The notes: a model not told the origin generated them from the letters alone. 59,172 nucleotides of DNA from a bacterium (GCA_023246095.1 JAHFJA010000005.1:1-59172), one strand, 5' to 3'. Shown: positions 5,170-47,308, numbered from the stretch's first letter. A program made the numbers and translations.

Positions 5170-7500
5170 ATGACTAAGAAAACCAGACCTTCGATCGCGA
5201 AAATATCGATACCAGGAACACAAAGCGATGAACTCTGCTACGTATTTGCAGAGCGGCTCGACGAACGTAATCCGCAGTCGGATACAGTGTTCGGTATTTT
5301 TCAAATCCGCTCATCAAGCGAAGCATACCAAACGATAATAGAACGTATCGTCAAACATATTCTTGACTTCTATTATCGTGCGCAAGAAAATAATTCGAAT
5401 GCTAACTCGGAGAATGCCGTTGGTGCCTCAGAATTTCTTTTTGAAAATGCTCTGCAATACGCGAACGACCATGTTGTAAGCATGATTGAAGAAATGCAAG
5501 ACGCACTTACAGGTCGTACGCTCATCGATCGTACACGCATTTCCTTGTTGATTGGTGTAATTTCAGGAGAAGATCTCTTCCTAACAAGCACCGGCAACGC
5601 TGTGAAGGCCTATATGCTGTATCCTGTTTCACGTAACGGAACATTTTCCCACTACTCGGCTATATCAGTGACCGATGAACAAAACCAAGAACGATCACCC
5701 GATGCAAAAAAGTTATTTACTAACGTTATCGCAGGAACATTTTCTATTCCTGGAAGCACATTAGTAGTATGCAATGCACGATTCAATGACTATATTCCTA
5801 TTGACCAGATAAAGCAGATCATATCAAGTTACCCTTTCGATCATGTCACTAAATACCTGTATAACTTATTAGGAAAGGCAAATGAAAACACTGACTTCAA
5901 TGCCTTATTTCTTTCTCTTCAAGAGTCAGATTTTTCGGAACTTAAAGGATCCCATCGTCAAACCCGTTCCGATGATTCAATCAATGAATTAGTTGAGCAA
6001 CAAAAAAATACTCAGAGTATTTTATCCCCTGCAGTTGTCAGTCACATGAAAGAACAGGTGGAGCACTTTGTTGTACACAGCATTATAAAACCAGCTCAAT
6101 CACTTCGAAACAGCCTAAAAAAAGTTGATTATCAAAAACATGCCAAGACATTAAAAGGTTGGAGTAAACACATGTCGATAACAGCGAAAAAGAGCGTCGG
6201 CGTTGTCAAAAAAAACTATAAAAATCCACTCCCAGCGGTTAAGCGAATCAACATCCCAAAACGATTTGACGTATCTAGCATCAAAAAAATAATTTTACCC
6301 TCAATCAAAAAAATTACACACTTCTATGCAAAACTACGCGAACAAGGGCCCACATATTTTATAGATTGGTTTAAAGGACTTTCAATGTTATCGAAGGGTC
6401 TCTTTGCTCTCGCTGTTATATTTATCTTCTTATTTGCAAGCAGTATCATTACTCTCAACAAAAAACACGGTCAACAGACAGAGGATCAAGTATATACAGC
6501 ACAATTCAACGCGGTGGAACAAAAAATCAACCAAGCTGAATCTAGTATGATTTTTGAAGACGAGGCACGCGCCATAGCATTATTATCTGAGGCCCAAACA
6601 TCATTGTCATCGCTTCCTCGTGATTCAGCTGACCATATTGCTGCTTCAGATGCGTTAAGCCTGCGTATCAACCAATCAAACCAAAAGATACATAAAGTAT
6701 ATCCTGTCACACAGACGGAGATTACTAATTTGAGCAACCAGATTCCAACACTCGACTCAATCAACTTTGTGGCATCCCCAAACACTGTGCTTGTTTACAA
6801 CAACGAGAGCATTTATGTGCTATCTCGCCAAAATGGGACAGTGACCCAATTAAATACTCAAGCAAAAATTCCTAGCATTGGATGCTCAGCCGCTCTCTCC
6901 GATGATTTATTTTACTTTTGCAGTAAGGAAGGTGATCGGTTATATGAAGTCAACATAAAGACCAAAGAAACCAAACAGATTTCAATAAAACTTTTCCCAA
7001 AGGAAACCTTAAAGGCTATCACTTTCTTTAATAACAGACTCTATGTTCTTGACACGACAACAAATACTATATTCCGTCACAGTAAATCAAAAGACGGATT
7101 TGGGACTCCCATTCAGTGGTTCGCTGGAACATCGACTGCGTCCTTAACGGATGGTCGACAAATAATTATCGATGGGACTGCCTTCGTTTTGAAAAATGGA
7201 GCAGAATTGATGCGAATAGCTTCAAATAGAACGTCTACACTGTCGTTTGCAAAAATTGAGCCAAAAATTGACACAGCTCAATCATTCTGGGTGGCGGAAG
7301 AATCAAATTATCTTTACCTTCTCGACACACCAAACAAACGTATCCTCGTCGTGGACAAATCAACAACTAAACTAGTGGCGCAATTAACTTCTGACATTTT
7401 TGCACAGGCACGATCTTTCAGTGTCATTGAGAAAAAGAAAGAGATCCTTGTACTCACCCCTACCGCTATCGTAAGCATTCCACTCCCGTTTCTTAAATAG
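5170..7500 (+). CDS. Large bitopic hypothetical protein (cytoplasmic N-domain, one TM, helical region, C-terminal beta-propeller-like region)
   Basis: Long ORF; TM segment GLFALAVIFIFLFASSIITL; beta-rich repeats near the C-terminus. ATG at 5170 preferred over the TTG at 5143. Confidence 0.6.
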   Translation: MTKKTRPSIAKISIPGTQSDELCYVFAERLDERNPQSDTVFGIFQIRSSSEAYQTIIERIVKHILDFYYRAQENNSNANSENAVGASEFLFENALQYANDHVVSMIEEMQDALTGRTLIDRTRISLLIGVISGEDLFLTSTGNAVKAYMLYPVSRNGTFSHYSAISVTDEQNQERSPDAKKLFTNVIAGTFSIPGSTLVVCNARFNDYIPIDQIKQIISSYPFDHVTKYLYNLLGKANENTDFNALFLSLQESDFSELKGSHRQTRSDDSINELVEQQKNTQSILSPAVVSHMKEQVEHFVVHSIIKPAQSLRNSLKKVDYQKHAKTLKGWSKHMSITAKKSVGVVKKNYKNPLPAVKRINIPKRFDVSSIKKIILPSIKKITHFYAKLREQGPTYFIDWFKGLSMLSKGLFALAVIFIFLFASSIITLNKKHGQQTEDQVYTAQFNAVEQKINQAESSMIFEDEARAIALLSEAQTSLSSLPRDSADHIAASDALSLRINQSNQKIHKVYPVTQTEITNLSNQIPTLDSINFVASPNTVLVYNNESIYVLSRQNGTVTQLNTQAKIPSIGCSAALSDDLFYFCSKEGDRLYEVNIKTKETKQISIKLFPKETLKAITFFNNRLYVLDTTTNTIFRHSKSKDGFGTPIQWFAGTSTASLTDGRQIIIDGTAFVLKNGAELMRIASNRTSTLSFAKIEPKIDTAQSFWVAEESNYLYLLDTPNKRILVVDKSTTKLVAQLTSDIFAQARSFSVIEKKKEILVLTPTAIVSIPLPFLK

Positions 7501-33153: not shown

Positions 33154-34380
33154 TTATTCATATCTCAATGCGACGATGGGGTTTAATTTCGACGCTCGTC
33201 GAGCTGGGTAGTATCCGAATATAATTCCTATCACTGTTGAGACCCCAAAAGCAATAAGAATTGATGAGACAGAAACCTTCGTCTGAATTAAACCAAATTG
33301 ATTGATCCCCACTGAGATTCCCCAACCCAGAACTACTCCAATAGCACCACCCAAAAATGTTAGCATGACGGCTTCAAGCAGAAACTGAAGATTGATATCC
33401 CGCCGTTTAGCTCCAATAGCTTTTCTTAACCCAATCTCCCGTGTTCTCTCGGTTACGTTAGTTAACATCATGTTCATGATACCGATTCCGCCAACTAGCA
33501 GTGAAATACCAGCGACTGCAGCAAGGAGAATGGTAAGTGTATTAGTAACCGTTGACGCGGTCGCAACAATATCTGCTTGATTAAGCGTACTAAAATCGGC
33601 TAGCTGCGGATCAGAAATATGATGCCGTTCGAGCAACAAGGTCGTAAGGTCCTGCTGTACGGTAGACATCGACGATGAGTCACGTGCTTGAACACTAATG
33701 GTCGTTACATAATTATCCCCCGCCAAAAACCTCTCTGCGCTAGTTAATGGTACAAAAATCATGTCATCTTGACTACCAAATCCCGACCCCCCTTTTGCCT
33801 TGGTCACACCGATAATCTTAAATTCCACATTTTTAATACGGATAGTCTGACCTATCGCATTTCCTCCATCACCAAACAAATCAGTAACTACTGTTGGCCC
33901 CACGACCGCAACCTTCGATAAAGAACGAAGATGTTGATCTGTAATGAATAGACCTTGATCAAGTTGAATATTTCGAACTCCCAGGTAGGTATCGGTGACC
34001 CCGACTACTGACGTATTAGTATTTGTTCCTTTACTGGTAACTTGATATCGCCCTGATAACTCGGGGGCTACCGAGGTTATTTCTGTGTTTCCTGACAAAG
34101 TAATCGCATCAGCGTCGGCCTGTGTCAAAGTTCGAGCAGATCCCCTGCCCGCGCTTATTTGAACCCCCGCCCCTCTCTGTGCCCCAGGCATAACGAGTAT
34201 AAGATTCGAACCAATTGATTGAATACTAGACTGAATCGATCCTTGCGCACCCTGACCGATGGAAACCATAGCAATTACCGAACTAATGCCAATAACAATA
34301 CCCAAAATTGTAAGACCTGAACGCGCCTTATTGGATGAAAGACTTGAATATGTTTCATGAAGAAGGTCAGATATTCTCAT
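33154..34380 (-). CDS. MacB-like ABC transporter permease
   Basis: RSGLTILGIVIGISSV, GGIGIMNMML.NVTERTREIGLRKAIGA, GYYPARRAS.LNPI.ALRYE. Confidence 0.95.
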   Translation of the reverse strand: MRISDLLHETYSSLSSNKARSGLTILGIVIGISSVIAMVSIGQGAQGSIQSSIQSIGSNLILVMPGAQRGAGVQISAGRGSARTLTQADADAITLSGNTEITSVAPELSGRYQVTSKGTNTNTSVVGVTDTYLGVRNIQLDQGLFITDQHLRSLSKVAVVGPTVVTDLFGDGGNAIGQTIRIKNVEFKIIGVTKAKGGSGFGSQDDMIFVPLTSAERFLAGDNYVTTISVQARDSSSMSTVQQDLTTLLLERHHISDPQLADFSTLNQADIVATASTVTNTLTILLAAVAGISLLVGGIGIMNMMLTNVTERTREIGLRKAIGAKRRDINLQFLLEAVMLTFLGGAIGVVLGWGISVGINQFGLIQTKVSVSSILIAFGVSTVIGIIFGYYPARRASKLNPIVALRYE

Positions 34381-35102
34381 ATTGTAGATGCTCCGTGAGG
34401 TAGGATATGTTTCTTTCCTGAACGAGTAGGAATATCTTCAACAATACTCCCGTCTTTAATGACAATAATCCGATCAGCATGTTGCGCAACATCCGGCTCA
34501 TGGGTAATAAGTACGATTGTCCTACCCTCTTCTTTGTTCAACTTTCCAAAGGTAGCAAGAACGATCTCACCTGTTTTAGAGTCCAAATTTCCCGTCGGTT
34601 CGTCAGCGAGAATGAGTGCCGGGTTATTTACTAAAGATCGCGCGATCGCAACACGCTGAACTTGACCGCCGGAAAGTTGATTTGATCGATGAGAAAAATG
34701 CTGCTCCTCCAATCCAGCCGCAAATAATGCTTTACGTGCACGCTGCAAACGTTCTTCTCCCACAACCCCTGCATATGTCAAAGGTAACATGACGTTACTT
34801 AACACTGTCGCACGGGGCAAAATATTGAATGATTGGAATACAAACCCTATCTTTTCTCGACGAATATCAGCGAGTTCGTCATCATTGAGGGTAGATACAT
34901 CCTTGCCGTCGAGGACATATGTACCGCTTGTTGGTGTGTCCAAGGCTCCCAAGATATACATCAATGTAGATTTCCCTGACCCCGAAGGACCCATAATCGC
35001 AACAAATTCTCCGTCTTGAATAGTAAAGGTAACCCCTTTAAGTGCTTGAAAATCACTATCACCAATCCTATATGTTTTCTTAATGTTATTTACCTCGATC
35101 AT
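34377..35102 (-). CDS. MacB/LolD-type ABC ATP-binding protein
   Basis: GPSGSGKST, LSGGQVQRV, ILADEPTGNLD. Start re-placed to ATG 35102. Confidence 0.95.
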   Translation of the reverse strand: MIEVNNIKKTYRIGDSDFQALKGVTFTIQDGEFVAIMGPSGSGKSTLMYILGALDTPTSGTYVLDGKDVSTLNDDELADIRREKIGFVFQSFNILPRATVLSNVMLPLTYAGVVGEERLQRARKALFAAGLEEQHFSHRSNQLSGGQVQRVAIARSLVNNPALILADEPTGNLDSKTGEIVLATFGKLNKEEGRTIVLITHEPDVAQHADRIIVIKDGSIVEDIPTRSGKKHILPHGASTI

Positions 35103-35103
35103 A

Positions 35104-37188
35104 TTATCGTCCAGTAGCACCGGACGCTCCCCGGAATGTACCCCCCGCTCCACCCCCCCTGTTCCCCGTATTTGGCGTCCCCAACAAACTAGGTGCCTGT
35201 GTTGTGATGGTTGTTGTCGTCGTTGGACGAATCGTACGAGTAATAACCTGATCTCCTTCTTTGAGACCGTCGACAATTTCTGTTGATGTATCATTAGAAA
35301 TCCCAACAGTAACCATTCGTTGTTCAGGGGATGTATTAAGTGTCACCCCTTGATTGTTGGTCTCTTTAATCATTGTTGGTGTTACCAATTCAACATACGT
35401 AGTGCCGTCTCCTTGTGTTTTTATGGCACCATTGTCGACTGTGATAACATCTTGTTTCGCCTGAGTAATAATGGCGGCACTCGTACTCATACCCGGCTTT
35501 ACTCGACCATCTTGAGTATCAAACACAATCTTTGCTGTATAACTGACCACACCTTGAGTAACGGTTCCGATCGACTGAATTTCAACCACCTCTCCTGTCA
35601 CCTGTAATCCATCTATTGCGTCAAACGTTAATGTCGCCTTATCACCAACTTGTATTTTTGCAGCATCGACTTCATTGAGAGAAATTTCAGCAATACGTTG
35701 TTTTGTAATAAGCGTCACAATGACAGTACTTGGGGAAACTGCATCTCCTTTTTTTACAGGAACACTAGCGACGACACCATCGAATGGCGCAACAATAGAA
35801 TAGTCAGCGAGAGCTGTCTTGGCATCAGTAAGAGCATTTGCTTTTTGTTCAACCATCAATTGTTGGGTTTGCACATCGAGCGGATCTGCGCCTGCTTTGA
35901 GTTTAGCAAGCGCTGATTCTTTTTCAGCGATCAATGCCTTAGCATTAGCAATATCGATCGGATCAGCACCTGCGGTAAGTTTAGCAAGAGTCGATTCTTT
36001 TTCCTGCACCGAAGACTTGGCAGCTGCTAAATCAAGTGGTTGATTTTGCTGGAGTTGAGACAGGTTACTCGTTGCGGTTATAACTGCTTGATTATTATCT
36101 TTTACTGTCTGCTGACTCGACAATAACGCCGACAAATGGCCATTTACCTTACCAATATCAGTAGATGCTTTCGTTTGATTTGTTTTTATTTGTAAATAAA
36201 TAAGATAGTGTTTTTGAGTGCGATAATCAACCCATGCATCCATATAGTTGCTTTCGCTTTTTGTAGCCTGAGCAATTTGTTTTGTTGTGTCTATTGTTTG
36301 TTGCAATAATGACTCAACGGTGATGCGATCGGAGTATCGTGTGGACGCTTTAAATGCAGTGAAGGTCTTATCATATAAAGCACGTGCTGTCTGCTCATCA
36401 TTTTCAGCAACAGTCTGTAGTGTTTGCATATACGGCCGATCAGCAACATCAACGTCATTAATCATAACCATGGAATTACTTTCATTATTTATGATATCAG
36501 TATTATGAAGTATCCCATCCACATCGGTCATAATTGTGGGGAGATCTAAAAATGTATTTGCAATTTCATTGAACGCATCTTCGTACGCTTTCGCAGTATT
36601 GTCAGTGGCTTTCTGAGAAGCTGCTTGGGCATTACTGAGGTCAGTAGGCTGAGATAGAACCAACTTTGAAAGAACATCTTGAGCATTTTTTAATGTATTC
36701 TGTGCCTGCAGAACCGATGAAGCGTCCGCCGATTGTTGTAATTTACTCAAAGCATTACGAGCACTATCTACGGCATTTTGTGCTTGAAGTATTGAATATG
36801 AATCTGCTGGTTTCTTTAATTTTTCTAACGCTAATACGGACGATTCCCAATTTGATTGTGCATCCCGGACCGTCTTTTGTGCATCACGATCATCAATCAT
36901 AGCCAAAACAGTACCTGATTTTACATCAATACTATCTGTCAACACATTCAACACATCTCCCGATACCTTTGACTTAACATCGACTTGATTAAGTGCGGCC
37001 ACCTGCCCGCTGCCTGACACCGTGCTAATTAACGCACCTTTTTGGGCAGTACCCAGGACATACCGAACTTCCGTAGCTGGTTTATTCAGTGCAGTTAGCG
37101 CCCAATAAGTGCCTCCTATCAAAACAACAACACTGACCCCAACAAAGATACGATGGCGTCCGAATAACGTAACAATTTTCTTCAACAT
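35104..37188 (-). CDS. Efflux periplasmic adaptor (MacA/HlyD family) with very long coiled coil
   Basis: VSGSGQV...VKSKVSG.V; IVAPFDGVV...V..GD; LNEVDAAKIQVG; PGMST; GL.EGD.V. Confidence 0.9.
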   Translation of the reverse strand: MLKKIVTLFGRHRIFVGVSVVVLIGGTYWALTALNKPATEVRYVLGTAQKGALISTVSGSGQVAALNQVDVKSKVSGDVLNVLTDSIDVKSGTVLAMIDDRDAQKTVRDAQSNWESSVLALEKLKKPADSYSILQAQNAVDSARNALSKLQQSADASSVLQAQNTLKNAQDVLSKLVLSQPTDLSNAQAASQKATDNTAKAYEDAFNEIANTFLDLPTIMTDVDGILHNTDIINNESNSMVMINDVDVADRPYMQTLQTVAENDEQTARALYDKTFTAFKASTRYSDRITVESLLQQTIDTTKQIAQATKSESNYMDAWVDYRTQKHYLIYLQIKTNQTKASTDIGKVNGHLSALLSSQQTVKDNNQAVITATSNLSQLQQNQPLDLAAAKSSVQEKESTLAKLTAGADPIDIANAKALIAEKESALAKLKAGADPLDVQTQQLMVEQKANALTDAKTALADYSIVAPFDGVVASVPVKKGDAVSPSTVIVTLITKQRIAEISLNEVDAAKIQVGDKATLTFDAIDGLQVTGEVVEIQSIGTVTQGVVSYTAKIVFDTQDGRVKPGMSTSAAIITQAKQDVITVDNGAIKTQGDGTTYVELVTPTMIKETNNQGVTLNTSPEQRMVTVGISNDTSTEIVDGLKEGDQVITRTIRPTTTTTITTQAPSLLGTPNTGNRGGGAGGTFRGASGATGR

Positions 37189-37230
37189 AGAAAAATAAGG
37201 AATTATGCCCAATTAACGCAATCCGATGGA

Positions 37231-37295: not shown

Positions 37296-40007
37296 CTAAT
37301 TTTGGGTCCCCCAACGCTGGTCTGCTGCCACTAAAATCTCCGCAACGTCCTTCATTGTTGCTTGTTTCTTGAAATTGGATGCACTGACCTCTGCACCAAT
37401 TTGACCTAGATATTGTGTCGTTTTCGCTGCATTATTCAAGTCAACTGAAGGCTTTACTTTGTAAGCTCCCATAATCACCTTCGTAGCATCCTGAATAGTA
37501 ACTGTCCCCTTCCCTCCTGTCACAGAGTTTTTGTCGATCGTCTTGTTAATAAGACTCGCAAGTGCATTTTTATCAATCTTTTGATCGAGATTAATATTGC
37601 CATTCTTGTCAGGCGTTACTGCACCACCCTGTCGAAGGTACTGCATTTCTTGAAATAACGGATTATTGTCATCAATGTTTTTAGCTGGAATAAGCTTATC
37701 CTTAAACTTTTCGGTATTTGATGAACCAATACTCTTGGAAACCTGATCCTTTAATGCTTGGACATACCCGTTAACCGCTTGCTGATCCTTTAACTCTCCC
37801 GACTGAACTTTATCATTGAAATCTGCTAATTTCTGTTCGAGACCAGGAGCAATGTCAGCAGCGAATGTATAGTTCTTTATTTGCCCCGAAAGAGTCTGCA
37901 TTGTTTGTATAGTATCTTTATTCACCCCCTTAAGCGACTTCATGGTAGCGATACTCTTGTCAGCGTTCTTTGATTCATCCAAAAGACCTATTTTCCCCTC
38001 GAGAATCGCTGTTCTATCTTCTTCTGGAACGAGAGGTACAATGTCATTTATTATCCCGTCAATAAGTTTTTTATCACTCGTCCTATAAGCGAGTACCTTG
38101 TCCATAAGATCGGGGCTCAATGAGCCTAATGTAGCATTGATATCAAAGCCATTTTCGTTACTATTCACGATACCTTTTGTCTTTGCAGCTGAATCAGTAC
38201 TCAAATTAGGAAGATCTGTTGAGTTATTGGCCATCTGCACTATTTTCAAAACCGCATTATTTTGATCATTTGTTATTTTAACTCCTGAATCTTTCAATAC
38301 ATTGACCAGCTTGGACAGCGCCAATACTGCGTCATCAAGAACATAACCACCCTTAAACGGATCGCCCCCATCGTAGAGAGCTTGCGATTCTTTTAATTTT
38401 TGATTCGCCTGTGCTAACAAATCTTTTGCCCCGCCGACATTTCCTCCGCGCTTGGAAAGCTCTGGAATAGCACTTTCCAGACTTGCAATCGCCGCCCGAA
38501 CAGCGCCAAGCCCTTGTGCAAGCAGCTCACCACGCGTCTTCATAGCTACCGATCGAATAGCCGCATCTACTTTTTCACGAGTGTTAAGACTTTTGGCTTG
38601 ACTCATGTAAGTAAGAAACGTATCCGTGTCACCCGCATTCAATGCCACTTCCGCTTTGTTCACCAATCCATCCAATTGCACCGCTAGAGCTTCCAAATCG
38701 GTCGTATTAACCCCATACTCGAGCGCTCTTCCAATACTCAAATGCAATGCTTTAGCACCATCCTTGCCTTGCTGTAAAATCTCTTGTAGACGAGCTGTTG
38801 GATATGCCTGATCTCGAAATGCTAAAAAGGTTTGTTCTGGATTTAAATTACGAATTTCTTGTATTTTCTGCGTTGCAGTAACATTATCACCATCATCAAA
38901 CGCTTTTTTAGCTGTTGTGTATAATGTCTTCAGCTTCCCATCCAAATCCAAAATATTTTGCGGTATATCGGTACCTGCACTTTTTGCTTTCTCAAGACCA
39001 CTTCCCGCACGGTCTATACCGGCCGAAATCTGATCCAATATTGTTGAAATTTTAGACGTTGGGATTGATTTACCACTGACAAGATCCGCCTGTGCAGTAC
39101 CATCGCCATAATCTTTTCTCATTTTTTTTAATAACGCCGCAGCCTCCTTTTTTTTTCCTGCTTTTACCAACCCTTCTGCGTCGTCCAAAAACTTCTGTTG
39201 CGTCAAAATATCACCTTGAATCTGCATTACCTCGTCAGCCGGTGCATTTTTTAACGCTGAATTCAATGCACTGGTTAATTTACCTCGAATATCCTTTATG
39301 AGATCCAATGAAATGCCTTGCGAATCAGCAAATGCGGCATATTTTTGATCGAAACCAACCGCCTGAAGTTCTTGCAATTTTGTCCCTGCACCGGCATAAT
39401 CCTTTGCTTCAAATAAATGTACTGCTGCATCATAAATAGGACGAGCCGCCTTTACGCTCTTTTCCATTGCAGGATCAACAGTAATCATCCCATCTTTCAT
39501 CTCTGTAATACCCTCTTCAGCCTGAGAAAGTCCCTGTTTAATTTGTTCTAGCGCATTTGCCAACTTACCAATTCCCGGATCAGCACCTGCTCCCCCCACA
39601 GGAACCCCCATAAATTCTGGCATCGCCCCACCAGAAACACCCTGGGGAACAGCACCATATTTGCTAAAATCCATTTTTGAAGCGTCAAAGCCGGTGGGTA
39701 CTCCTGCGGGGATCTCACCTGAAAATCCAGTAGGGGCAGTATTCGTTGGAATACTTCCATTTGGATAACTGCCCAAAGTCTCAGGTGGAACTGTAGTTCC
39801 TACAGGAGCTGCGACTGCACCTCCCATCGCACCCGCTGCAGAGGCGGCTGCGGCGGCTTGAGCCGCTTGGCATTTTGCCAACATAGCGTCCGTTGGTTGC
39901 GAGGTAAATTGGCACTCTGGAACGTCAGCATGGGCAAAACCACCCTGCATCACAATCATTGTGATTGCCATAAACACCGCCACACTCTTTGGGATTCTTT
40001 TATTCAT
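37296..40007 (-). CDS. Large secreted helical-repeat surface protein with SLH-like C-terminus
   Basis: Signal peptide ending FAHA; repeated helical units; C-terminal IDDNNPLFQEMQYLRQGGAVTPDKNGNINLDQKIDKNALASLI resembles S-layer homology. Confidence 0.55.
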   Translation of the reverse strand: MNKRIPKSVAVFMAITMIVMQGGFAHADVPECQFTSQPTDAMLAKCQAAQAAAAASAAGAMGGAVAAPVGTTVPPETLGSYPNGSIPTNTAPTGFSGEIPAGVPTGFDASKMDFSKYGAVPQGVSGGAMPEFMGVPVGGAGADPGIGKLANALEQIKQGLSQAEEGITEMKDGMITVDPAMEKSVKAARPIYDAAVHLFEAKDYAGAGTKLQELQAVGFDQKYAAFADSQGISLDLIKDIRGKLTSALNSALKNAPADEVMQIQGDILTQQKFLDDAEGLVKAGKKKEAAALLKKMRKDYGDGTAQADLVSGKSIPTSKISTILDQISAGIDRAGSGLEKAKSAGTDIPQNILDLDGKLKTLYTTAKKAFDDGDNVTATQKIQEIRNLNPEQTFLAFRDQAYPTARLQEILQQGKDGAKALHLSIGRALEYGVNTTDLEALAVQLDGLVNKAEVALNAGDTDTFLTYMSQAKSLNTREKVDAAIRSVAMKTRGELLAQGLGAVRAAIASLESAIPELSKRGGNVGGAKDLLAQANQKLKESQALYDGGDPFKGGYVLDDAVLALSKLVNVLKDSGVKITNDQNNAVLKIVQMANNSTDLPNLSTDSAAKTKGIVNSNENGFDINATLGSLSPDLMDKVLAYRTSDKKLIDGIINDIVPLVPEEDRTAILEGKIGLLDESKNADKSIATMKSLKGVNKDTIQTMQTLSGQIKNYTFAADIAPGLEQKLADFNDKVQSGELKDQQAVNGYVQALKDQVSKSIGSSNTEKFKDKLIPAKNIDDNNPLFQEMQYLRQGGAVTPDKNGNINLDQKIDKNALASLINKTIDKNSVTGGKGTVTIQDATKVIMGAYKVKPSVDLNNAAKTTQYLGQIGAEVSASNFKKQATMKDVAEILVAADQRWGTQN

Positions 40008-40065: not shown

Positions 40066-40620
40066 TCACAAAATCTCCTCTTTTTTTAAAAGCGCCACTC
40101 CCCCGGCTAACCGATATAACCTATTCACAGATATCCTTCTCACGACCTCAAACACCCCAAACAGCGAAGCTGCATAAACGACATCCCCCACTACCATATT
40201 ACGAAAAAATGGTAATCCAAGCTCATATGCATACAAAAGTCCTCCGATATTTTTCGCATACCACGGCGAACATAACCAAACAGTAAAGTTAGTAACAATA
40301 AAAAAAATAACGGAGGAACCCACAAGTACAAAACTTGTAGGAACCAGCCCTGGGTACTTTTTTGTAAAAGCACTCAACAAACCGATCAAGACGAAAGAAA
40401 TATACACACTGACTAATATCTTCCAATTATAAAAACCAATAATTGCGTCCGAGAAAATCATTGCAATTATGGGTATCGCAACCGCCCACATGCGTCCGAT
40501 ATGCTTGCTACCCATGAGCGAAATAGCGCTGATGGGAGTTGCATTGGGGACGTGAGGAACCAAACGCCCAACAATACCAATTCCCACTAGACTGATAGTG
40601 GCGAAAATCTTTTTATACAT
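40066..40620 (-). CDS. DUF6580/BtuM-like ECF-type S-component (putative cobalamin transporter)
   Basis: RLVPHVPNATPI, SDAIIGFY, SSVIFFIVTNF.VW, PFFRN..GD..Y motifs; about 6 TM; B12 gene context. Confidence 0.75.
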   Translation of the reverse strand: MYKKIFATISLVGIGIVGRLVPHVPNATPISAISLMGSKHIGRMWAVAIPIIAMIFSDAIIGFYNWKILVSVYISFVLIGLLSAFTKKYPGLVPTSFVLVGSSVIFFIVTNFTVWLCSPWYAKNIGGLLYAYELGLPFFRNMVVGDVVYAASLFGVFEVVRRISVNRLYRLAGGVALLKKEEIL

Positions 40621-40624
40621 AGAT

Positions 40625-41110
40625 CTACTGCTGTGAAGCTCCAAACAACCACTCGATTCTATCGCCCGATTTTAATTTATATGCATCGGCTCCCACTTGT
40701 GGCATCACCCCATTAACTTTGTACTGCCAATATTTTTGATCAGTTCCATTTTTCTTTCCATACATGCCGTCAACTAACGTGCCCAACCCTGCATATTCTT
40801 TCGTTGAAAGTGCAAGTTGAGGATCTTGTACATTGAGTGTTTGCAATACTTGTAGTCCTGTTTCGTCCAAAGAAATCGTTATCTGTTTGTTTTGGTACAA
40901 CCCTTCAATGGTGAGGGTGACTTCGTTTGTTTTCACTGGTTCCACAACAGGCTGAGGAGCCTGATTATTCCCCTGTATAACGACCTGATTGGCGGGAATC
41001 GACGGCGATTGCCTATTAATGTAATAATAACCTCCCACAACCACAATAATAACAAATAGGGCTATACCGACTACCGGGTTCTGATTGTGTCGTTTAAATT
41101 TTATCTCCAT
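40625..41110 (-). CDS. DUF4430 protein (transcobalamin beta-domain-like B12 binder), membrane-anchored
   Basis: N-terminal TM; GLGTLVDGMYG...YWQYKVNGVMPQVGADAYKLKSGDRIEW. Confidence 0.85.
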   Translation of the reverse strand: MEIKFKRHNQNPVVGIALFVIIVVVGGYYYINRQSPSIPANQVVIQGNNQAPQPVVEPVKTNEVTLTIEGLYQNKQITISLDETGLQVLQTLNVQDPQLALSTKEYAGLGTLVDGMYGKKNGTDQKYWQYKVNGVMPQVGADAYKLKSGDRIEWLFGASQQ

Positions 41111-41122
41111 ATCATAATGAAA

Positions 41123-41659
41123 TTAATAAAGGGGCGACAATTCTTTAGTCTCTTGTTGTGTGGCAGTATATCTGGCGAGTACGTACAGTAAGCTTGAAAG
41201 ACGATTGATGTAAGCACGCATACTACCAGAAATCTCCACATTATTTTGCGATCCCACAAGCACACGCTCTACCCGACGACACACAGCCCGTGCAAAATCA
41301 AACAAGCCCGAAAGTTCTGTCGCCCCGGGAATAATGAATGCCTTCGGGTCTTCTATCAATGCTTCGATTGTCGATATAGCGTGTTCCAATTCTTCAATGT
41401 GATTCTGGGTAATCGTTTTTTTGGCACCGGCAATTTCAGCTTGCATGATAAACAAACACTGTTGAACATTCACTAACTCAACAGCAATATCGACATCTTT
41501 ATATATTGTTTTCAAAGCACAGCCACGACAGTAGCCAAGAAGAGAGTTTATTTCATCAAGGGCTCCCAAAACATCGTAGACGGGGCTATCTTTCGATAGC
41601 CGTTCTGCGGTTCCAAAGAGCCCTGACGTACCGTTGTCTCCCGTACGTGTATATAGCAT
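41123..41659 (-). CDS. pduO: ATP:cob(I)alamin adenosyltransferase, PduO type
   Basis: LYTRTGDNGTSGL, GALDEINS, ARAVCRRVER, YINRLSSLLYVLAR. Confidence 0.95.
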   Translation of the reverse strand: MLYTRTGDNGTSGLFGTAERLSKDSPVYDVLGALDEINSLLGYCRGCALKTIYKDVDIAVELVNVQQCLFIMQAEIAGAKKTITQNHIEELEHAISTIEALIEDPKAFIIPGATELSGLFDFARAVCRRVERVLVGSQNNVEISGSMRAYINRLSSLLYVLARYTATQQETKELSPLY

Positions 41660-41669
41660 CACGACGTCA

Positions 41670-43997
41670 TTAGATTGATTTAACTTGTTCCTGTGGCGCT
41701 ACCATGTCGATATCACAAAGGCCTCCAACACAGGCAAGTTCTTTCTTCTGTTCTGTTTCATCGGTACGCTCGTAAGTCAAAAGCTTTGAGTAATCAACAT
41801 CAGGGAATGCAACCAGCATCTCTTCATATTTCTTCTTATCAATTGTTTCATAAGGGGCAAGCTGGTAGACGTGATCGAAACGTGGCAAAAATGATAGCCC
41901 GCCAACGATATCCCAATTCTTTTGTACCCAATCAACGACGCTGATCCATTCATCTTCACTTACTGAGATGGTCGCTGATGGATTATGTTCTGTGAAATTC
42001 AATTTTATCACTTTCCAATATTCGAGTTGTTCGAGAGCCGAAAAATCGTCTTTAAATGCGGAACTATCAGGAGATTCGACAGGAAATTCAAGTACGTACG
42101 TACTCGCCGTTTCAACATTTTGACCAACTTCTGGATAACAAGGCACCCCTTGACTACGGAGCATTTTAAATAACGAGTCAGTAGCTGAAATGCGGACGCG
42201 GCGGATATAGTATTTGGAGTGACGGGGATGAATACCTGACGAACAATTAAACGTCTGTGAAACGGTACCAGACGGTTTTACCGCAGTGACTGCCATTGAG
42301 GCTTGAATACCAAAGCGCTGTGAGAAATCGGCATTTGTTTTAACTGCGACATCGCGCATTTCACGTAGTGTCTCCGGCTGGCGTGATGCTTTGCTGTCCC
42401 ACTGACCAGTAATAGACACCCCCAACAATGACTCCTCAAGACAATGTTTCGTCCAATCCTTTGATATATAGTTAAACTTGGTCAAAGTGGCCTGGTATGT
42501 ACCCAAGATACTCGCCAAATGTGCTTTGCGAACTAATGTTTCATGGGTATCATGTGCGCGTGCGATAACCTCTGAAAGGTTACAAAACTGCTTTGACTGC
42601 AAGATAATCTCCCCGCAAGGATTAGTCCCGACGGGACCTTGAACGACACCGTCTTCACCAATAAAACCGACAGTTTTGAAGTAATCAACGCGACGCTTTG
42701 GAATAGTGTTAGCCAACGCACCGCGATTGAATATACCGCGTTCACCTGAACCGCTTCTCATGAGCGCAACCCACTCTTCCATCAATTCCACGTTGGAAGG
42801 TCTCGTTTCATATACCGCAGAGTTGTTTGCAACCGCTCGATACGGTTCGGTCAGATAAAACTGACCTTTCTTCGCATCTCTCAAATCCACGTCATCAAGA
42901 TCAGATAAGCTGATCATTGCAGTACGACGAACACCGCCAGCGACAACACATTCACCGATTTTACAAATGACGTCATGTGCATCAATGGGGCGCAAACGGC
43001 GGCCTTGGCGATGCAATATCTTTTCACGTGCAAATCCTAAAAGCGAACGCAGTGGCTCTGGTCCCGATGCCTTACCCCCCATCACCTTAAGTCGTGCTCC
43101 TGCTGGACGAATCAACGAATAATCAAAGTCAATGTCTTTCCCGTCATACCACGTCTTTATTCCCAAAGTGAGGGCATCACACCAACCTTCTTTTGAATCT
43201 GCGATGACGTGGGTCGCCAATTTCATTTTTGTTTGCTTCTTGATTTGAGGTAGTTCCTCAATGTTTCTGCTTTCAACTGAAAAACCAACACCGCATCCCT
43301 GCATTGAGAGATACATTATTTCGGCAAAGTCCTCTAAACTACTCGGTGCGATGAAAGTACAGTTATACGCGCAGGTGTTACACCGACGCGCCGCTTCACC
43401 GGCGAATTGCATAAGCCGCATCGAAGGCATGATGTCCTGGCGGAGTATGGCCTCTCTCAACTCATAGTATTCCTCGTCTGTGACCTTATTTCCGAGGTTT
43501 TCTTGCATAAACGACATATACCGATCTACGGTCTCAATCCATGTTTCACGCCTGTTTTCTGACGCTATCCAGTGTGCGTAGGTACGTAAATATACAAACT
43601 CACCCAGTTGATTATTTTTAAAATATTTTTTGCTTTCCTGTGCAAGTGTGCGCACATGTTCAGGCACCTCACCTTGCGTTTGGCGCATACGTGTACGTTC
43701 AGCTCGGTAGAGAATATATTCTTTCGCTGTATTAGGAAAATCCTGAAGCATTAATTCCTTCTCCACTTCATCCTGTACACCTTCAACTGTCGGCCTAAAT
43801 GTTGGGTCCACCGTGACCTCAGCAGCTAATGTTTTCATTACTGCTTCGGCAATCGCGTCACCTGCATTTTCACGAAATTCTCCCGATGCTTTCAGCGCTT
43901 TACTTACCGCCAGAGAAATTTTATTAGCGTCAAACGGTGCCATCGAACCATCCCTTTTTATTATTATCTTAAGCGCTGAAACGTTTGCATGGGACAT
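41670..43997 (-). CDS. nrdJ: Class II (AdoCbl-dependent) ribonucleotide reductase with N-terminal ATP cone
   Basis: IIKRDG...FDANKI ATP cone; YNCTF; GGVRRTAMI; TNPCGEI; VKPSGTVS; C-terminal CVGGLC. Confidence 0.95.
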   Translation of the reverse strand: MSHANVSALKIIIKRDGSMAPFDANKISLAVSKALKASGEFRENAGDAIAEAVMKTLAAEVTVDPTFRPTVEGVQDEVEKELMLQDFPNTAKEYILYRAERTRMRQTQGEVPEHVRTLAQESKKYFKNNQLGEFVYLRTYAHWIASENRRETWIETVDRYMSFMQENLGNKVTDEEYYELREAILRQDIMPSMRLMQFAGEAARRCNTCAYNCTFIAPSSLEDFAEIMYLSMQGCGVGFSVESRNIEELPQIKKQTKMKLATHVIADSKEGWCDALTLGIKTWYDGKDIDFDYSLIRPAGARLKVMGGKASGPEPLRSLLGFAREKILHRQGRRLRPIDAHDVICKIGECVVAGGVRRTAMISLSDLDDVDLRDAKKGQFYLTEPYRAVANNSAVYETRPSNVELMEEWVALMRSGSGERGIFNRGALANTIPKRRVDYFKTVGFIGEDGVVQGPVGTNPCGEIILQSKQFCNLSEVIARAHDTHETLVRKAHLASILGTYQATLTKFNYISKDWTKHCLEESLLGVSITGQWDSKASRQPETLREMRDVAVKTNADFSQRFGIQASMAVTAVKPSGTVSQTFNCSSGIHPRHSKYYIRRVRISATDSLFKMLRSQGVPCYPEVGQNVETASTYVLEFPVESPDSSAFKDDFSALEQLEYWKVIKLNFTEHNPSATISVSEDEWISVVDWVQKNWDIVGGLSFLPRFDHVYQLAPYETIDKKKYEEMLVAFPDVDYSKLLTYERTDETEQKKELACVGGLCDIDMVAPQEQVKSI

Positions 43998-44204
43998 ACG
44001 CTAAAAGTAGTTTAATTGCTTAGCACTCTGTCAGGGTATCAGTTTTTTATATGCGTGTCACGACAGGTACTTTCATCATAAATATGAAGTATAATCACAG
44101 AAAAATTACATGTTCGTCATGACATTTTTTTCTACTGTGGATATCTAATTATCCATCAGCCTATTTTAGTTTTACTCTCCCATCAGCCTCATCCCTTAAA
44201 ACGT

Positions 44205-44474
44205 TTATTTACTATGTGCTGTTTTATGTGCCCAATTCAAAAGCGTTACAAAAAGATACCCGGCAATATACCCAACCAATGAAGTAAAAATGATAAGTCC
44301 TATTGTTGATAGCACATTAAACGGACCGACAACGTACGGCGGATTGATCATGTGGAGCATAAATACAAAATCTAACAGTGGCTGTGCAAGACCAAATGCG
44401 ACCAAAAGAGCCCAAAAAAGGTGAAATGCACCCAAAAAAAGACCAAACGCGATACCCACTCGAGTTGGTTTCAT
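44205..44474 (-). CDS. Small two-TM hypothetical protein
   Basis: Hydrophobic 89-aa ORF (HLFWALLV...WAH). Confidence 0.7.
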   Translation of the reverse strand: MKPTRVGIAFGLFLGAFHLFWALLVAFGLAQPLLDFVFMLHMINPPYVVGPFNVLSTIGLIIFTSLVGYIAGYLFVTLLNWAHKTAHSK

Positions 44475-44556: not shown

Positions 44557-46482
44557 CTAAACGGCTAATGCGGCTAATGCGCCCTCAGCAACCGCTTCGG
44601 TGACTCTTCGCACTTCGCGCGCGTCGCCGACAATCACTACGTTTTTCGTAATGCTCTTAAGCTCTTTTGTAAGCCCATCGGCTGGATATGACCCTAAACA
44701 CAACACAACCGTATCGGCGGGTACAACATGAACACCATGATGACCTTCAACGCTCACTGAGCGTTGGTCAATACTCATAACTTTACTCTCGGTGAGTAAC
44801 GCAACCTTTTTCCTTGAAAGTCGTTCCAAAAGCAAAGCACGATCGTCACTGGGTGCATCAGTAGCAATAGACCCGGTTGCTTCCACGATAGTCACCTTAT
44901 GTCCCTTTTCCACCAGAAATTCGGCCGTTTGAGCCCCCATACATCCTCCTCCGGCAATCACCACCGTTCCTTTTGCTTTTGACCGTCCTGTCAACAAGTC
45001 GCGTGCAACAACAACATTGGTATTTGCAACACCGGGTATATTTGGCCGAGCCACATCAGAACCAACCGCTACAATTACCGTGTGGGGTCGATCCTTTTTG
45101 ATCAGTGCACTTGTCGCTTCCACACCAAGATGAATATCAATATTCAATTTCTGTGCTTCTTGGATAAGATATTTTTTGAATCCGCGCCAATCTTCCCTAT
45201 GGGGTGCTGCGGCAGCGGCATCAAGCTGACCACCAAGTTTTTTTGTTTTCTCATATAATATCACTGAATGTCCTCGGCTTGCCGCCACAATAGCTGCTTG
45301 AAGCCCTGCAGGACCACCCCCAATAACAACAACTCGACGCTTCACGCCTTTCTTTTTTGCAAATAGACGCTCACGACCTGTCTCTGGGTTGACTGTGCAC
45401 CATACATCTTGTTGAGCAAACAAGCGACTAATACAACCTTGATTGCACGCAATACATTTATTTATGGTCTCCAGTGTTCCTTTTTTTACTTTATTCGGCC
45501 AATCAGGATCAGCAAGTAATGTACGCCCGATACCAATATAGTCGGCATCTCCTTTTTTTAAAATACTTTCAGCCATTTGAGGGGTTCGAATTTTTGCAAC
45601 GGTGATGACAGGAATATGCACTGCCTTCTTTATCGCCTTTGCGAATTGAACTATCGGACCATCCGGCATTGCCATAGGTGGAATCATGAAACCCCTCGCA
45701 TAAGAGGCGTAATTCCCCACAGAAATGTGAAGGGCATCTACACCCAACGCTTCAGCAACACGAGCAATCTCTGTTGTATCTGTTATGGAAAGTCCTCCTT
45801 CAACCATTTCATCCCCTGACAACCGCAAGACAACAGGAAAATCTTCACCGACGGCTCTACGGACAGTACTGTATACCTCCTTCATAAATCGCATGCGTTT
45901 TTCAGGGGTTCCACCATACTCATCAGTACGGCGGTTCGAAAATGGCGAGAGGAACTGCGTAATCAAATATCCATGAGCACCATGTACCTCAACAAAATCA
46001 AACCCCGCTTTTTTCGCACGCAAAGCCGCGCGACCGTATGCGTTCACAAGACGTTTAATCTCCGGAATGGTCAGTTCGTGTGGAATTTCATTGACAGTAG
46101 GATCAGGAATTTCAGACGGTGCTACCGGCTGTTTGCCGGTAATCTTTGACGATGTTTGCCGCCCCGCATGATAAAGTTGTATACCTATTTTCGCCCCTTG
46201 AACATGAGCAACCTTGACCAATTTTTTTAGACCCGGAATCACAACGTCACTGTGAATGCCCAATTCATTGACAAAACCCTTTCCTTCCGGAGCAATATAA
46301 CTTGCTTCAAGGATCATCATTCCCACCCCGCCACGGGCCACGCGGTCAATATGATCAACATACCGCTGTGTTACCAAACCTTTCTTATCGGCATAATTAC
46401 GCACCATCGGCGGCATAACCAGTCGATTTTTAAGACGCATCGTCCCTATGCGCCCCCGCTTGAACATATGAGGAAACATCAT
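44557..46482 (-). CDS. NADH:flavin oxidoreductase, OYE/FadH-BaiCD type (FMN, 4Fe-4S, FAD)
   Basis: NRLVMPPM, HGAHGYLITQFLSP, CIACNQGC...C, GGGPAG. Start re-placed to ATG 46482. Confidence 0.92.
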   Translation of the reverse strand: MMFPHMFKRGRIGTMRLKNRLVMPPMVRNYADKKGLVTQRYVDHIDRVARGGVGMMILEASYIAPEGKGFVNELGIHSDVVIPGLKKLVKVAHVQGAKIGIQLYHAGRQTSSKITGKQPVAPSEIPDPTVNEIPHELTIPEIKRLVNAYGRAALRAKKAGFDFVEVHGAHGYLITQFLSPFSNRRTDEYGGTPEKRMRFMKEVYSTVRRAVGEDFPVVLRLSGDEMVEGGLSITDTTEIARVAEALGVDALHISVGNYASYARGFMIPPMAMPDGPIVQFAKAIKKAVHIPVITVAKIRTPQMAESILKKGDADYIGIGRTLLADPDWPNKVKKGTLETINKCIACNQGCISRLFAQQDVWCTVNPETGRERLFAKKKGVKRRVVVIGGGPAGLQAAIVAASRGHSVILYEKTKKLGGQLDAAAAAPHREDWRGFKKYLIQEAQKLNIDIHLGVEATSALIKKDRPHTVIVAVGSDVARPNIPGVANTNVVVARDLLTGRSKAKGTVVIAGGGCMGAQTAEFLVEKGHKVTIVEATGSIATDAPSDDRALLLERLSRKKVALLTESKVMSIDQRSVSVEGHHGVHVVPADTVVLCLGSYPADGLTKELKSITKNVVIVGDAREVRRVTEAVAEGALAALAV

Positions 46483-46567
46483 ATGAATATATATTATGTA
46501 CCCGAAGAGGGTGTAATAAATATCAAAAATTGCAACAAGTAATAAAACAACAACGCCTTCACACCTT

Positions 46568-47308
46568 TTATTTCTTCTCAACAACAATGGTACAATGGGT
46601 AACCAGCGCAGCAATAGCCCCGACTGCAGCAAGCGCAGGCACCAAGACGGCACCAATCGCGCCAATAGTTAAAGGGATTTCTATAAGCGTCTCACCATTC
46701 TCATTTTTAATGATAATACGTCGAATATTCCCTTCGTGAATAAGCGATTTTACTTTTGACAAAAGCTGTTCTCCGTCAATTTTGAACTCTGTCTTGGGCA
46801 TATGGGTATATTTCCTTGCCTTTGCAAGATGTTTATTAATAAATGCATCTTTCAAACTTCTGTAAATTTTTCCATCATTGTTGCAATCAATTACAGCCTT
46901 TTTCTTTAATTCAGCATATTCATTAGCTATACTTGGATTTTTTATCAAATAATTCCGAAAGCTAAGCGCATCATGCCACAACAAATTGTCAGTTGAAATG
47001 ACGTGGACATGAAATCTCCTCACTACCCCCTTCGCTCTCGCATCCCGTCTCAAGAAAAGCCTATTTTCATCAAAGGAACCCTCTTCATACCCCAACGTTT
47101 CAAGTGCTTTTTTGATTTTCTTAAATCCTGTTTTGGGACAAGAAACCATGAGATCGATAATACCCTTACCTGGTAATCCCGGGACTGCAGTGCTCCCTAT
47201 GTGCTCAATGATAGAATTTTTTGGAATGACTTTCTTGACCCTTCGTTCTTCATTCTTATATAGAGCAGGGAATATTTCTTCATATTTTCTGAATTCGTAG
47301 GGGTTCAT
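46568..47308 (-). CDS. GrpB-like nucleotidyltransferase domain fused in frame to DUF4342
   Basis: EHIGSTAVPGL.GK.IID, HVHV, FRNYL, Y..LK (GrpB); from internal Met 46801 GEQLLSKVKSLIHEGNIRRIIIK...EIPLTIG (DUF4342). Confidence 0.8.
   Translation of the reverse strand: MNPYEFRKYEEIFPALYKNEERRVKKVIPKNSIIEHIGSTAVPGLPGKGIIDLMVSCPKTGFKKIKKALETLGYEEGSFDENRLFLRRDARAKGVVRRFHVHVISTDNLLWHDALSFRNYLIKNPSIANEYAELKKKAVIDCNNDGKIYRSLKDAFINKHLAKARKYTHMPKTEFKIDGEQLLSKVKSLIHEGNIRRIIIKNENGETLIEIPLTIGAIGAVLVPALAAVGAIAALVTHCTIVVEKK

Follow-up and report, generated by a model that had tools for sequence, protein, structure and literature searches.

A gene cluster nrdJ-cbrS-cbrT-pduO has been published for Lactobacillus delbrueckii (Rodionov et al. 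2009, as cited in Santos et al. 2018, PMC5997447), and CbrT, working as an S-component with an energy-coupling factor (ECF) module, transports cobalamin and cobinamide, while CbrT alone without the ECF module does not complement (Santos et al. 2018, eLife, PMC5997447). BtuM of Thiobacillus denitrificans, on the other hand, works alone and employs Cys80 of loop 3 as cobalt ligand (Rempel et al. 2018, PMC6072759); it was first flagged by its genomic context next to BtuB-type receptors, and metabolic trapping by adenosyltransferase has been proposed for it (PMC6072759). Here we analyze a stretch of 59,172 nucleotides (GCA_023246095.1 JAHFJA010000005.1:1-59172, hereafter the window), which comes from a groundwater metagenome and belongs to an ultra-small bacterium, a Paceibacterota-like member of the Patescibacteria. 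At positions 40066-43997 of the window four open reading frames (ORFs) stand head to tail, all on the minus strand: nrdJ for a class II ribonucleotide reductase (RNR), pduO for an adenosyltransferase, a gene for a DUF4430 protein and a gene for a DUF6580 membrane protein. The original prediction, made from the sequence alone, had called this a self-contained operon for B12 capture, import, adenosylation and synthesis of deoxynucleoside triphosphates (dNTPs) and a candidate for a little-described system. We argue that it is the Patescibacteria counterpart of the lactobacillus cobalamin salvage operon, in which capture, import, adenosylation and ribonucleotide reduction are combined with an ECF-independent carrier, a reading to which we give a probability of about 0.5; that the four genes form such a pipeline, by whichever energy coupling, we consider very likely.

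The ORF coordinates bear out the packing of four co-oriented genes with gaps of about 10, 12 and 4 nucleotides (nt) that had been predicted: nrdJ and pduO are separated by 7 nt with a GTG start or 10 nt with an ATG start, and the next two gaps measure 12 nt and 4 nt. The gene identities proposed at the outset, nrdJ, pduO, DUF4430 and a DUF6580 S-component, agree with the Pfam and NCBIfam matches, and the nearest relatives of all four encoded proteins are found in Parcubacteria/Paceibacterota metagenome-assembled genomes. No terminator-like sites were found between the four genes, which are probably cotranscribed. We also noticed short contigs in the same DNA run which are 90-95% identical to parts of pduO, DUF4430 and the nrdJ 3' end (window 40960-42000), and thus the sample also harbors a strain that is closely related and has the same operon. 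As a system, however, the operon cannot be called little described, since the same four-part cluster was already published for L. delbrueckii, and we confirmed it in the record of L. intestinalis DSM 6629, where nrdJ, a DUF4430 protein, an ECF S component and an adenosyltransferase lie back to back, in agreement with Pfam. The S-component of L. intestinalis belongs to PF12822 and matches CbrT (6FNP_A) at 6e-63. The composition of this cluster indicates that CbrS is the DUF4430 protein and that the parts in the window correspond one to one with those of the published cluster; in hhalign the DUF4430 family aligned with L. intestinalis CbrS at a probability of 91% (E 9e-7), and PF14478 is present in both.

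We examined the conservation of the linkage in a locus set comprising the best 80 of at least 580 DUF6580-bearing genomes, one per species, with 8-kb flanks and a 13-sequence alignment as the pattern. Using tblastn with the four window proteins, the same order and strand were found in 13 other species-level Patescibacteria genomes, and all four genes were present in about 16 of the 80. Across the 13 syntenic genomes the identity ranges from 57 to 80% for NrdJ and from 48 to 58% for DUF6580, which implies that the gene order has outlasted considerable divergence; the four-gene linkage is far beyond chance. The original prediction had named absence of this linkage from other genomes as a finding that would speak against it, and the synteny search removes that objection. 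When all ORFs around DUF6580 in the 80 loci were clustered unsupervised, its neighbors were DUF4430 (56/80 loci), class II RNR (34/80), PduO (21/80), NrdR (9/80), an ArsR-like regulator (9/80) and a CobA/BtuR-type adenosyltransferase (7/80), and of the 76 loci whose flank was long enough, 38 have DUF4430 as the next gene upstream of DUF6580. In relatives, nothing akin to the genes that border the cluster in the window lies beside it, and therefore nrdJ and DUF6580 mark the true boundaries of the unit. For the same reason the 89-amino-acid (aa) ORF and the flavoenzyme upstream and the 903-aa protein downstream, described below, were rejected as members of the operon.

The nrdJ gene (41670-43997, minus strand) encodes an adenosylcobalamin-dependent ribonucleoside-triphosphate reductase (RTPR) type protein of 775 aa, in which Pfam recognizes an ATP-cone, the RNR_Alpha domain, the RNR-II insertion domain and the barrel. 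NCBIfam places it best under TIGR02505 (RTPR; 1.8e-89, 300.8 bits), and among solved structures it matches L. leichmannii RTPR (1L1L) at 4.5e-49. In the alignment with 1L1L, Cys213, Asn459-Pro-Cys461-Gly-Glu463 and Cys472 fall on the RTPR catalytic residues, and the C-terminal Cys756-x4-Cys761 pairs with the RTPR redox residues; since catalytic and redox residues are all aligned, NrdJ looks catalytically competent. The N-terminal ATP-cone covers residues 11-102 (43692-43967, minus strand; PF03477, 3.4e-16), and the ATP-cone of 5OLK was also matched. In another assembly of the same sequence an automatic gene call places the nrdJ start at Met19 (757 aa; window 43943-43997). The Pfam match to the ATP-cone, however, begins at residue 11 of the 775-aa protein, with KRDG at residue 14, and the longer start is better supported because a start at Met19 would cut into the cone. 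The pduO gene (41123-41662, minus strand) encodes a PduO-type ATP:cob(I)alamin adenosyltransferase of 178-179 aa (PF01923, 1.4e-41), whose TIGR00636 score of 133.9 bits exceeds the cut-off of 108.45.

The third gene (40625-41110, minus strand) encodes the 161-aa DUF4430 protein (PF14478, 3.4e-15), the equivalent of CbrS, composed of an N-terminal membrane anchor, a linker and a globular domain. In the AlphaFold2 (AF2) model, residues 13-31 form a helix (41018-41074, minus strand), which is also the single hydrophobic segment in the hydropathy scan, followed by a low-confidence linker and a confident globular part at residues 60-160 (40631-40933, minus strand; predicted local distance difference test, pLDDT, >90), the predicted B12-binding beta-domain. 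A lipobox cysteine is absent from the protein, hence it is probably held in the membrane by the signal-anchor helix. A DUF4430 profile built from 33 homologues matched the beta-domain of transcobalamin-1 (residues 332-431, E 7e-4) and that of intrinsic factor (0.01). Similarly, Foldseek matched the globular domain to haptocorrin (4KKI, E 1e-6) and to transcobalamin and intrinsic factor, also at E ~1e-6. Superposed on the isolated human transcobalamin beta-domain it gave TMt 0.82 with a root-mean-square deviation of 2.1 A for the apo form (5NO0) and TMt 0.81 for the cyanocobalamin-bound form (5NP4); the isolated human domain was crystallized with cyanocobalamin (PDB 5NP4, entry title). Judged from the model, the DUF4430 protein probably binds B12.

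In the nearest relatives (L001-L004) we observed a secreted protein of 613-731 aa inserted in the cluster (e.g. L001:5173-7014, L004:5251-7446), which carries an N-terminal DUF4430-like motif and an alpha/alpha-toroid over the Pfam threshold for PF01122, the family to which the alpha-domain of eukaryotic cobalamin binders belongs, two features that together make it a bacterial 'split or permuted transcobalamin'; no such PF01122-type protein is encoded in the window. Furthermore, on L. plantarum pMF1298-5 (L085:26169-31276) genes for EcfT, a fused EcfAA' and a 236-aa S-component are followed by one for a 244-aa DUF4430 protein, with a protein annotated 'fucose-binding lectin II', without Pfam match, encoded between the S-component and the DUF4430 gene. 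Taken with the L. intestinalis arrangement, this indicates that DUF4430 accompanies two kinds of cobalamin S-component in lactobacilli.

The last gene (40066-40620, minus strand, ATG start, MYKK...) encodes the 184-aa DUF6580 membrane protein (PF20221, 2e-37), a putative corrinoid carrier with S-component fold. Its AF2 model (pLDDT 92, predicted template modeling score 0.83) has the six-helix S-component architecture, and the top Foldseek matches were the ECF S-components FolT, RibU, ThiT and PanT, with probabilities of 0.9-1.0 and template modeling (TM) scores of 0.55-0.68. A phmmer search of the PDB with the single window protein gave no match, while a 34-member DUF6580 profile recognized one PDB entry at E<=10, namely CbrT (6FNP_A, E 1.5e-4), over the N-terminal 80 residues. 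The DUF6580 family and CbrT have in common the loop-1 motif PNxxP(I/V) and the motif S(D/N)xx(I/L)GF. By PF12822 membership the window S-component is not a CbrT orthologue. Near-invariant residues in the family are His23, Asn26, Asp58, Asn111, Tyr121 and Arg140; the single cysteine of the window protein, Cys117, is not conserved. We considered cysteine chemistry of the BtuM type for DUF6580 and rejected it, as there is no conserved counterpart of Cys80. An exhaustive profile search put the family at 6,697 clusters at 50% identity, 4,998 of them at E<=1e-10. Together these features suggest that the DUF6580 protein carries B12 across the membrane, presumably inward.

The 207-nt region upstream of nrdJ (43998-44204, minus strand) is the presumed promoter/operator of the operon. 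It contains no riboswitch, nor was a cobalamin riboswitch detected anywhere in the window with Rfam, either at the gathering cut-off or at E<=5; no other RNA element was found in the operon, and weak lysine, CopA and Yfr8 matches inside coding sequence were below threshold and were dismissed as chance. No cobalamin riboswitch was found in seven related nrdJ-led clusters either. We believe that this makes sense, because a switch turned off by B12 would silence the reductase when its cofactor is present. In contrast, among the DUF6580 loci without nrdJ, 7 of 24 have, a short way upstream and on the same strand, a riboswitch of the Cobalamin or AdoCbl-II class (3/12 outside and 4/12 within the Patescibacteria; L018:6982-7176, L029:7010-7188, L042:889-1031, L020:6160-6233, L078:5616-5851, L026:4506-4762 and L069:643-790). 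The riboswitch lies between DUF4430 and DUF6580 in L018 and L029, and in L078 and L026 it is followed by a TonB-dependent receptor and then DUF6580. DUF6580 is thereby tied to B12 by five independent lines, viz. the remote homology to CbrT, the S-component fold, the transcobalamin-like partner, the linkage to NrdJ and adenosyltransferase, and the cis riboswitches.

No consensus sigma-70 promoter was found in the 207-nt stretch, and neither an NrdR box nor the ArsR-type operator of the relatives is present upstream of the window nrdJ. A direct repeat AGGCTGATGG occurs at 44153-44162 and 44180-44189, with a period of 27 nt, 3' of the 89-aa ORF and 5' of nrdJ; the window has no further copy of it, the palindromes GGATAattagaTATCC and TCATAttTATGA are close by, and the repeat could be the operator of some regulator. 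In nine relatives with the four-gene cluster we noticed a divergent 113-123-aa ArsR-family regulator (PF01022; e.g. L001:2385-2750, L010:4071-4418), with conserved cysteine motifs EELCPDCFKVVG ... AHCFEECxIPY and distinct from NrdR, and the intergenic region between its gene and nrdJ carries two tandem palindromic boxes, CATAGACnnnTATCTATAT ... CATAGACCnTTATCAATAT. This protein may regulate the class II RNR/B12 operons of Patescibacteria, a role not described before; its gene is absent from the window.

We propose that the membrane-anchored DUF4430 protein would bind corrinoid outside the cell via its transcobalamin-beta-like domain and hand it to DUF6580, the six-helix carrier of S-component fold, which would move it across the single membrane. 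A reductant from outside the cluster would then yield cob(I)alamin, to be adenosylated by PduO, and the adenosylcobalamin would load NrdJ for the reduction of nucleoside triphosphates to dNTPs, with the ATP-cone providing overall activity control by ATP/dATP. Import would proceed without ECF module, in a BtuM-like manner, with PduO and NrdJ drawing the corrinoid in by metabolic trapping. Both the handover from DUF4430 to DUF6580 and the source of energy are thus putative steps. Fold, remote homology and the association of the transporter family with riboswitches independently back the pipeline of the original prediction, in which the functions given to the two membrane proteins are probable. 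The cluster is not self-contained, since an ECF energizing module, a cob(III)/cob(II)alamin reductase and a thioredoxin system are all missing from it.

Several observations weigh against the proposed operon and its solitary carrier. The same-sample groundwater metatranscriptome held no contig over the operon, and the TIGR02505 score of NrdJ falls short of the NCBI equivalog cut-off of 340. The hhalign comparison of the DUF6580 family with CbrT reached a probability of 76% (E 2e-5) over the N-terminal half only. BtuM gave no match to the DUF6580 profile in the PDB at E<=10 and was not among the top 50 Foldseek matches of DUF6580, and the best cysteine column of the family is filled in 18 of 34 sequences, the window protein not being one of them. 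In a full-text literature search no paper naming DUF6580 was found, nor any experiment on a member. With regard to energy coupling, neither the 59-kb window nor the 8-kb flanks of DUF6580 in the 80 genomes yielded an EcfT or ECF-type ATPase, in an EcfT search which, run by phmmer from one seed, is of limited sensitivity. Shared ECF modules (group II) as a rule lie far from the genes of their S-components, and the absence of ECF genes nearby is therefore weak evidence for a solitary carrier. Lastly, CbrT, the nearest characterized relative of DUF6580, is strictly ECF-dependent (PMC5997447).

It could therefore be argued that the pipeline is the same and that DUF6580 is a group II ECF S-component docking on an EcfAA'T module, possibly of CbiQ/CbiO type, encoded elsewhere and driven by ATP. 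That the strictly ECF-dependent CbrT is the sole PDB protein recognized by the DUF6580 profile speaks for such a module, and so does the L. plantarum DUF4430 protein, which follows a dedicated EcfT-EcfAA'-S cobalamin system. Besides, Patescibacteria are single-membraned like Firmicutes, in which ECF transporters are common. Against it, ECF T and A genes are missing beside DUF6580 in the 80 genomes and in the window, and a CbiMQO module normally serves its own S unit alone. Moreover, in diderm bacteria members of the family lie directly behind riboswitch-controlled TonB-dependent receptors, which points to a BtuM-like solitary mode for which BtuM-like carriers are the precedent. On balance we hold the ECF-driven version to be the less likely and favor the ECF-independent carrier over it by a modest margin. 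The more specific proposal, that a solitary DUF6580 fed by tethered DUF4430 constitutes a third S-component-based B12 importer beside ECF-CbrT and BtuM, with His23 of the loop-1 PHxPN motif ligating cobalt and metabolic trapping drawing the substrate in, is put forward tentatively.

The remaining explanations question the substrate or the link to B12 itself. The two membrane proteins might handle another corrinoid (cobinamide, pseudo-B12 or some other cobamide), or their task might be retention or sensing instead of import; cobinamide is also carried by ECF-CbrT (PMC5997447), and the DUF4430 domain, being half a transcobalamin, may bind less specifically. We regard this as improbable, as the linkage to PduO and NrdJ points to a cobamide that the cell can use, and the ORF survey and Pfam search of the neighbors revealed no CobS/CobT/CobU-type remodeling genes in the window, so that an incomplete corrinoid would be useless to NrdJ. 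Still less credible, and in our judgment very unlikely, is that DUF4430 and DUF6580 are unrelated to B12 and came to lie after nrdJ-pduO by accident. It is true that no B12-related neighbor lies within 8 kb in about half of the DUF6580 loci (many of these from Bacteroidota); but an accidental placement is at odds with the order kept in 13 species at the identities given above, with the fold and remote homology that link both proteins to B12 binders and carriers, and with the cis riboswitches in 7/24 loci.

The surroundings of the operon in the window, all on the minus strand, are as follows. Upstream of nrdJ lie an 89-aa hydrophobic, membrane ORF without family (44205-44474) and a gene for an Fe-S flavoenzyme resembling old yellow enzyme (OYE) and FadH (44557-46665; BaiCD/mycofactocin-OYE-like, scoring ~540 bits, which is under the equivalog cut-offs). 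Reduction of cobalamin is a role for which this enzyme would be a candidate, yet it is not conserved with the cluster. Downstream, 58 nt from DUF6580, starts the gene of a 903-aa alanine-rich, probably secreted protein without Pfam family (37296-40007); no terminator-like site separates it from DUF6580, and the protein is unrelated to the transcobalamin-alpha-like protein of the relatives. Further on, positions 33154-37212 encode a MacB-type ATP-binding cassette (ABC) exporter (FtsX/MacB_PCD permease and ATPase) with a 702-aa YknX-like membrane-fusion protein. Besides this ATPase the window encodes just one of the ABC kind, FtsE at 1566-2246, and neither FtsE nor the MacB-type ATPase is of ECF type.

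Ultra-small Patescibacteria are thought to be dependent on other cells for most cofactors. The operon suggests that their supply of DNA precursors hangs on scavenged B12 and names the likely proteins; a literature search on Patescibacteria combined with cobalamin, RNR and ECF found nothing on this group. Since lactobacilli share the logic of the operon, its value lies in the transporter family. If DUF6580 is truly a solitary importer, the family could supply the B12 importer that is so far missing from many bacteria devoid of BtuCDF, most Patescibacteria among them.

When compared with described systems, NrdJ is like L. leichmannii RTPR (1L1L) in its catalytic residues, in the B12-dependent class II architecture and in the C-terminal CxxxxC for thioredoxin-type reduction; it is about 26-36% identical to Firmicutes RTPRs, and it differs from 1L1L in the extra N-terminal ATP-cone and the sub-cut-off TIGR02505 score. 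The DUF4430 domain has the same fold as the beta-domain of transcobalamin, haptocorrin and intrinsic factor (4KKI, 2BB5, 5NO0, 5NP4, 2PMV) and shares with it the motif ...YWqY.VNG...GA..Y.L..GD.v.W..., whereas the window protein is a beta-domain only, tethered to the membrane at its N-terminus and devoid of the alpha/alpha-barrel domain. DUF6580 and BtuM are both small membrane proteins of S-component fold that have been linked to B12 uptake, with no ECF genes beside them and with members next to BtuB-type receptors, but no sequence similarity between them was detected and Cys80 of BtuM has no conserved counterpart in DUF6580.

The closest likeness is to the lactobacillus cluster, which likewise joins an RTPR-type NrdJ, a small DUF4430 protein, an S-component-fold protein of ~180 aa and PduO in co-oriented, tightly packed genes, with no cobalamin riboswitch before nrdJ, in a B12 auxotroph supplying a B12-dependent RNR. 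In that cluster, however, pduO comes last, while it is second in the window. CbrT belongs to PF12822 (ECF_trnsprt), whereas the window carrier belongs to PF20221 only and is related to CbrT over ~80 N-terminal residues; the ECF dependence of CbrT has been demonstrated experimentally (PMC5997447), whereas the window carrier may work without the module. The L. intestinalis NrdJ, too, has no ATP-cone, unlike that of the window. What is new in the Patescibacteria operon with respect to the lactobacillus cluster is thus the DUF6580-family importer and the ATP-cone on the reductase.

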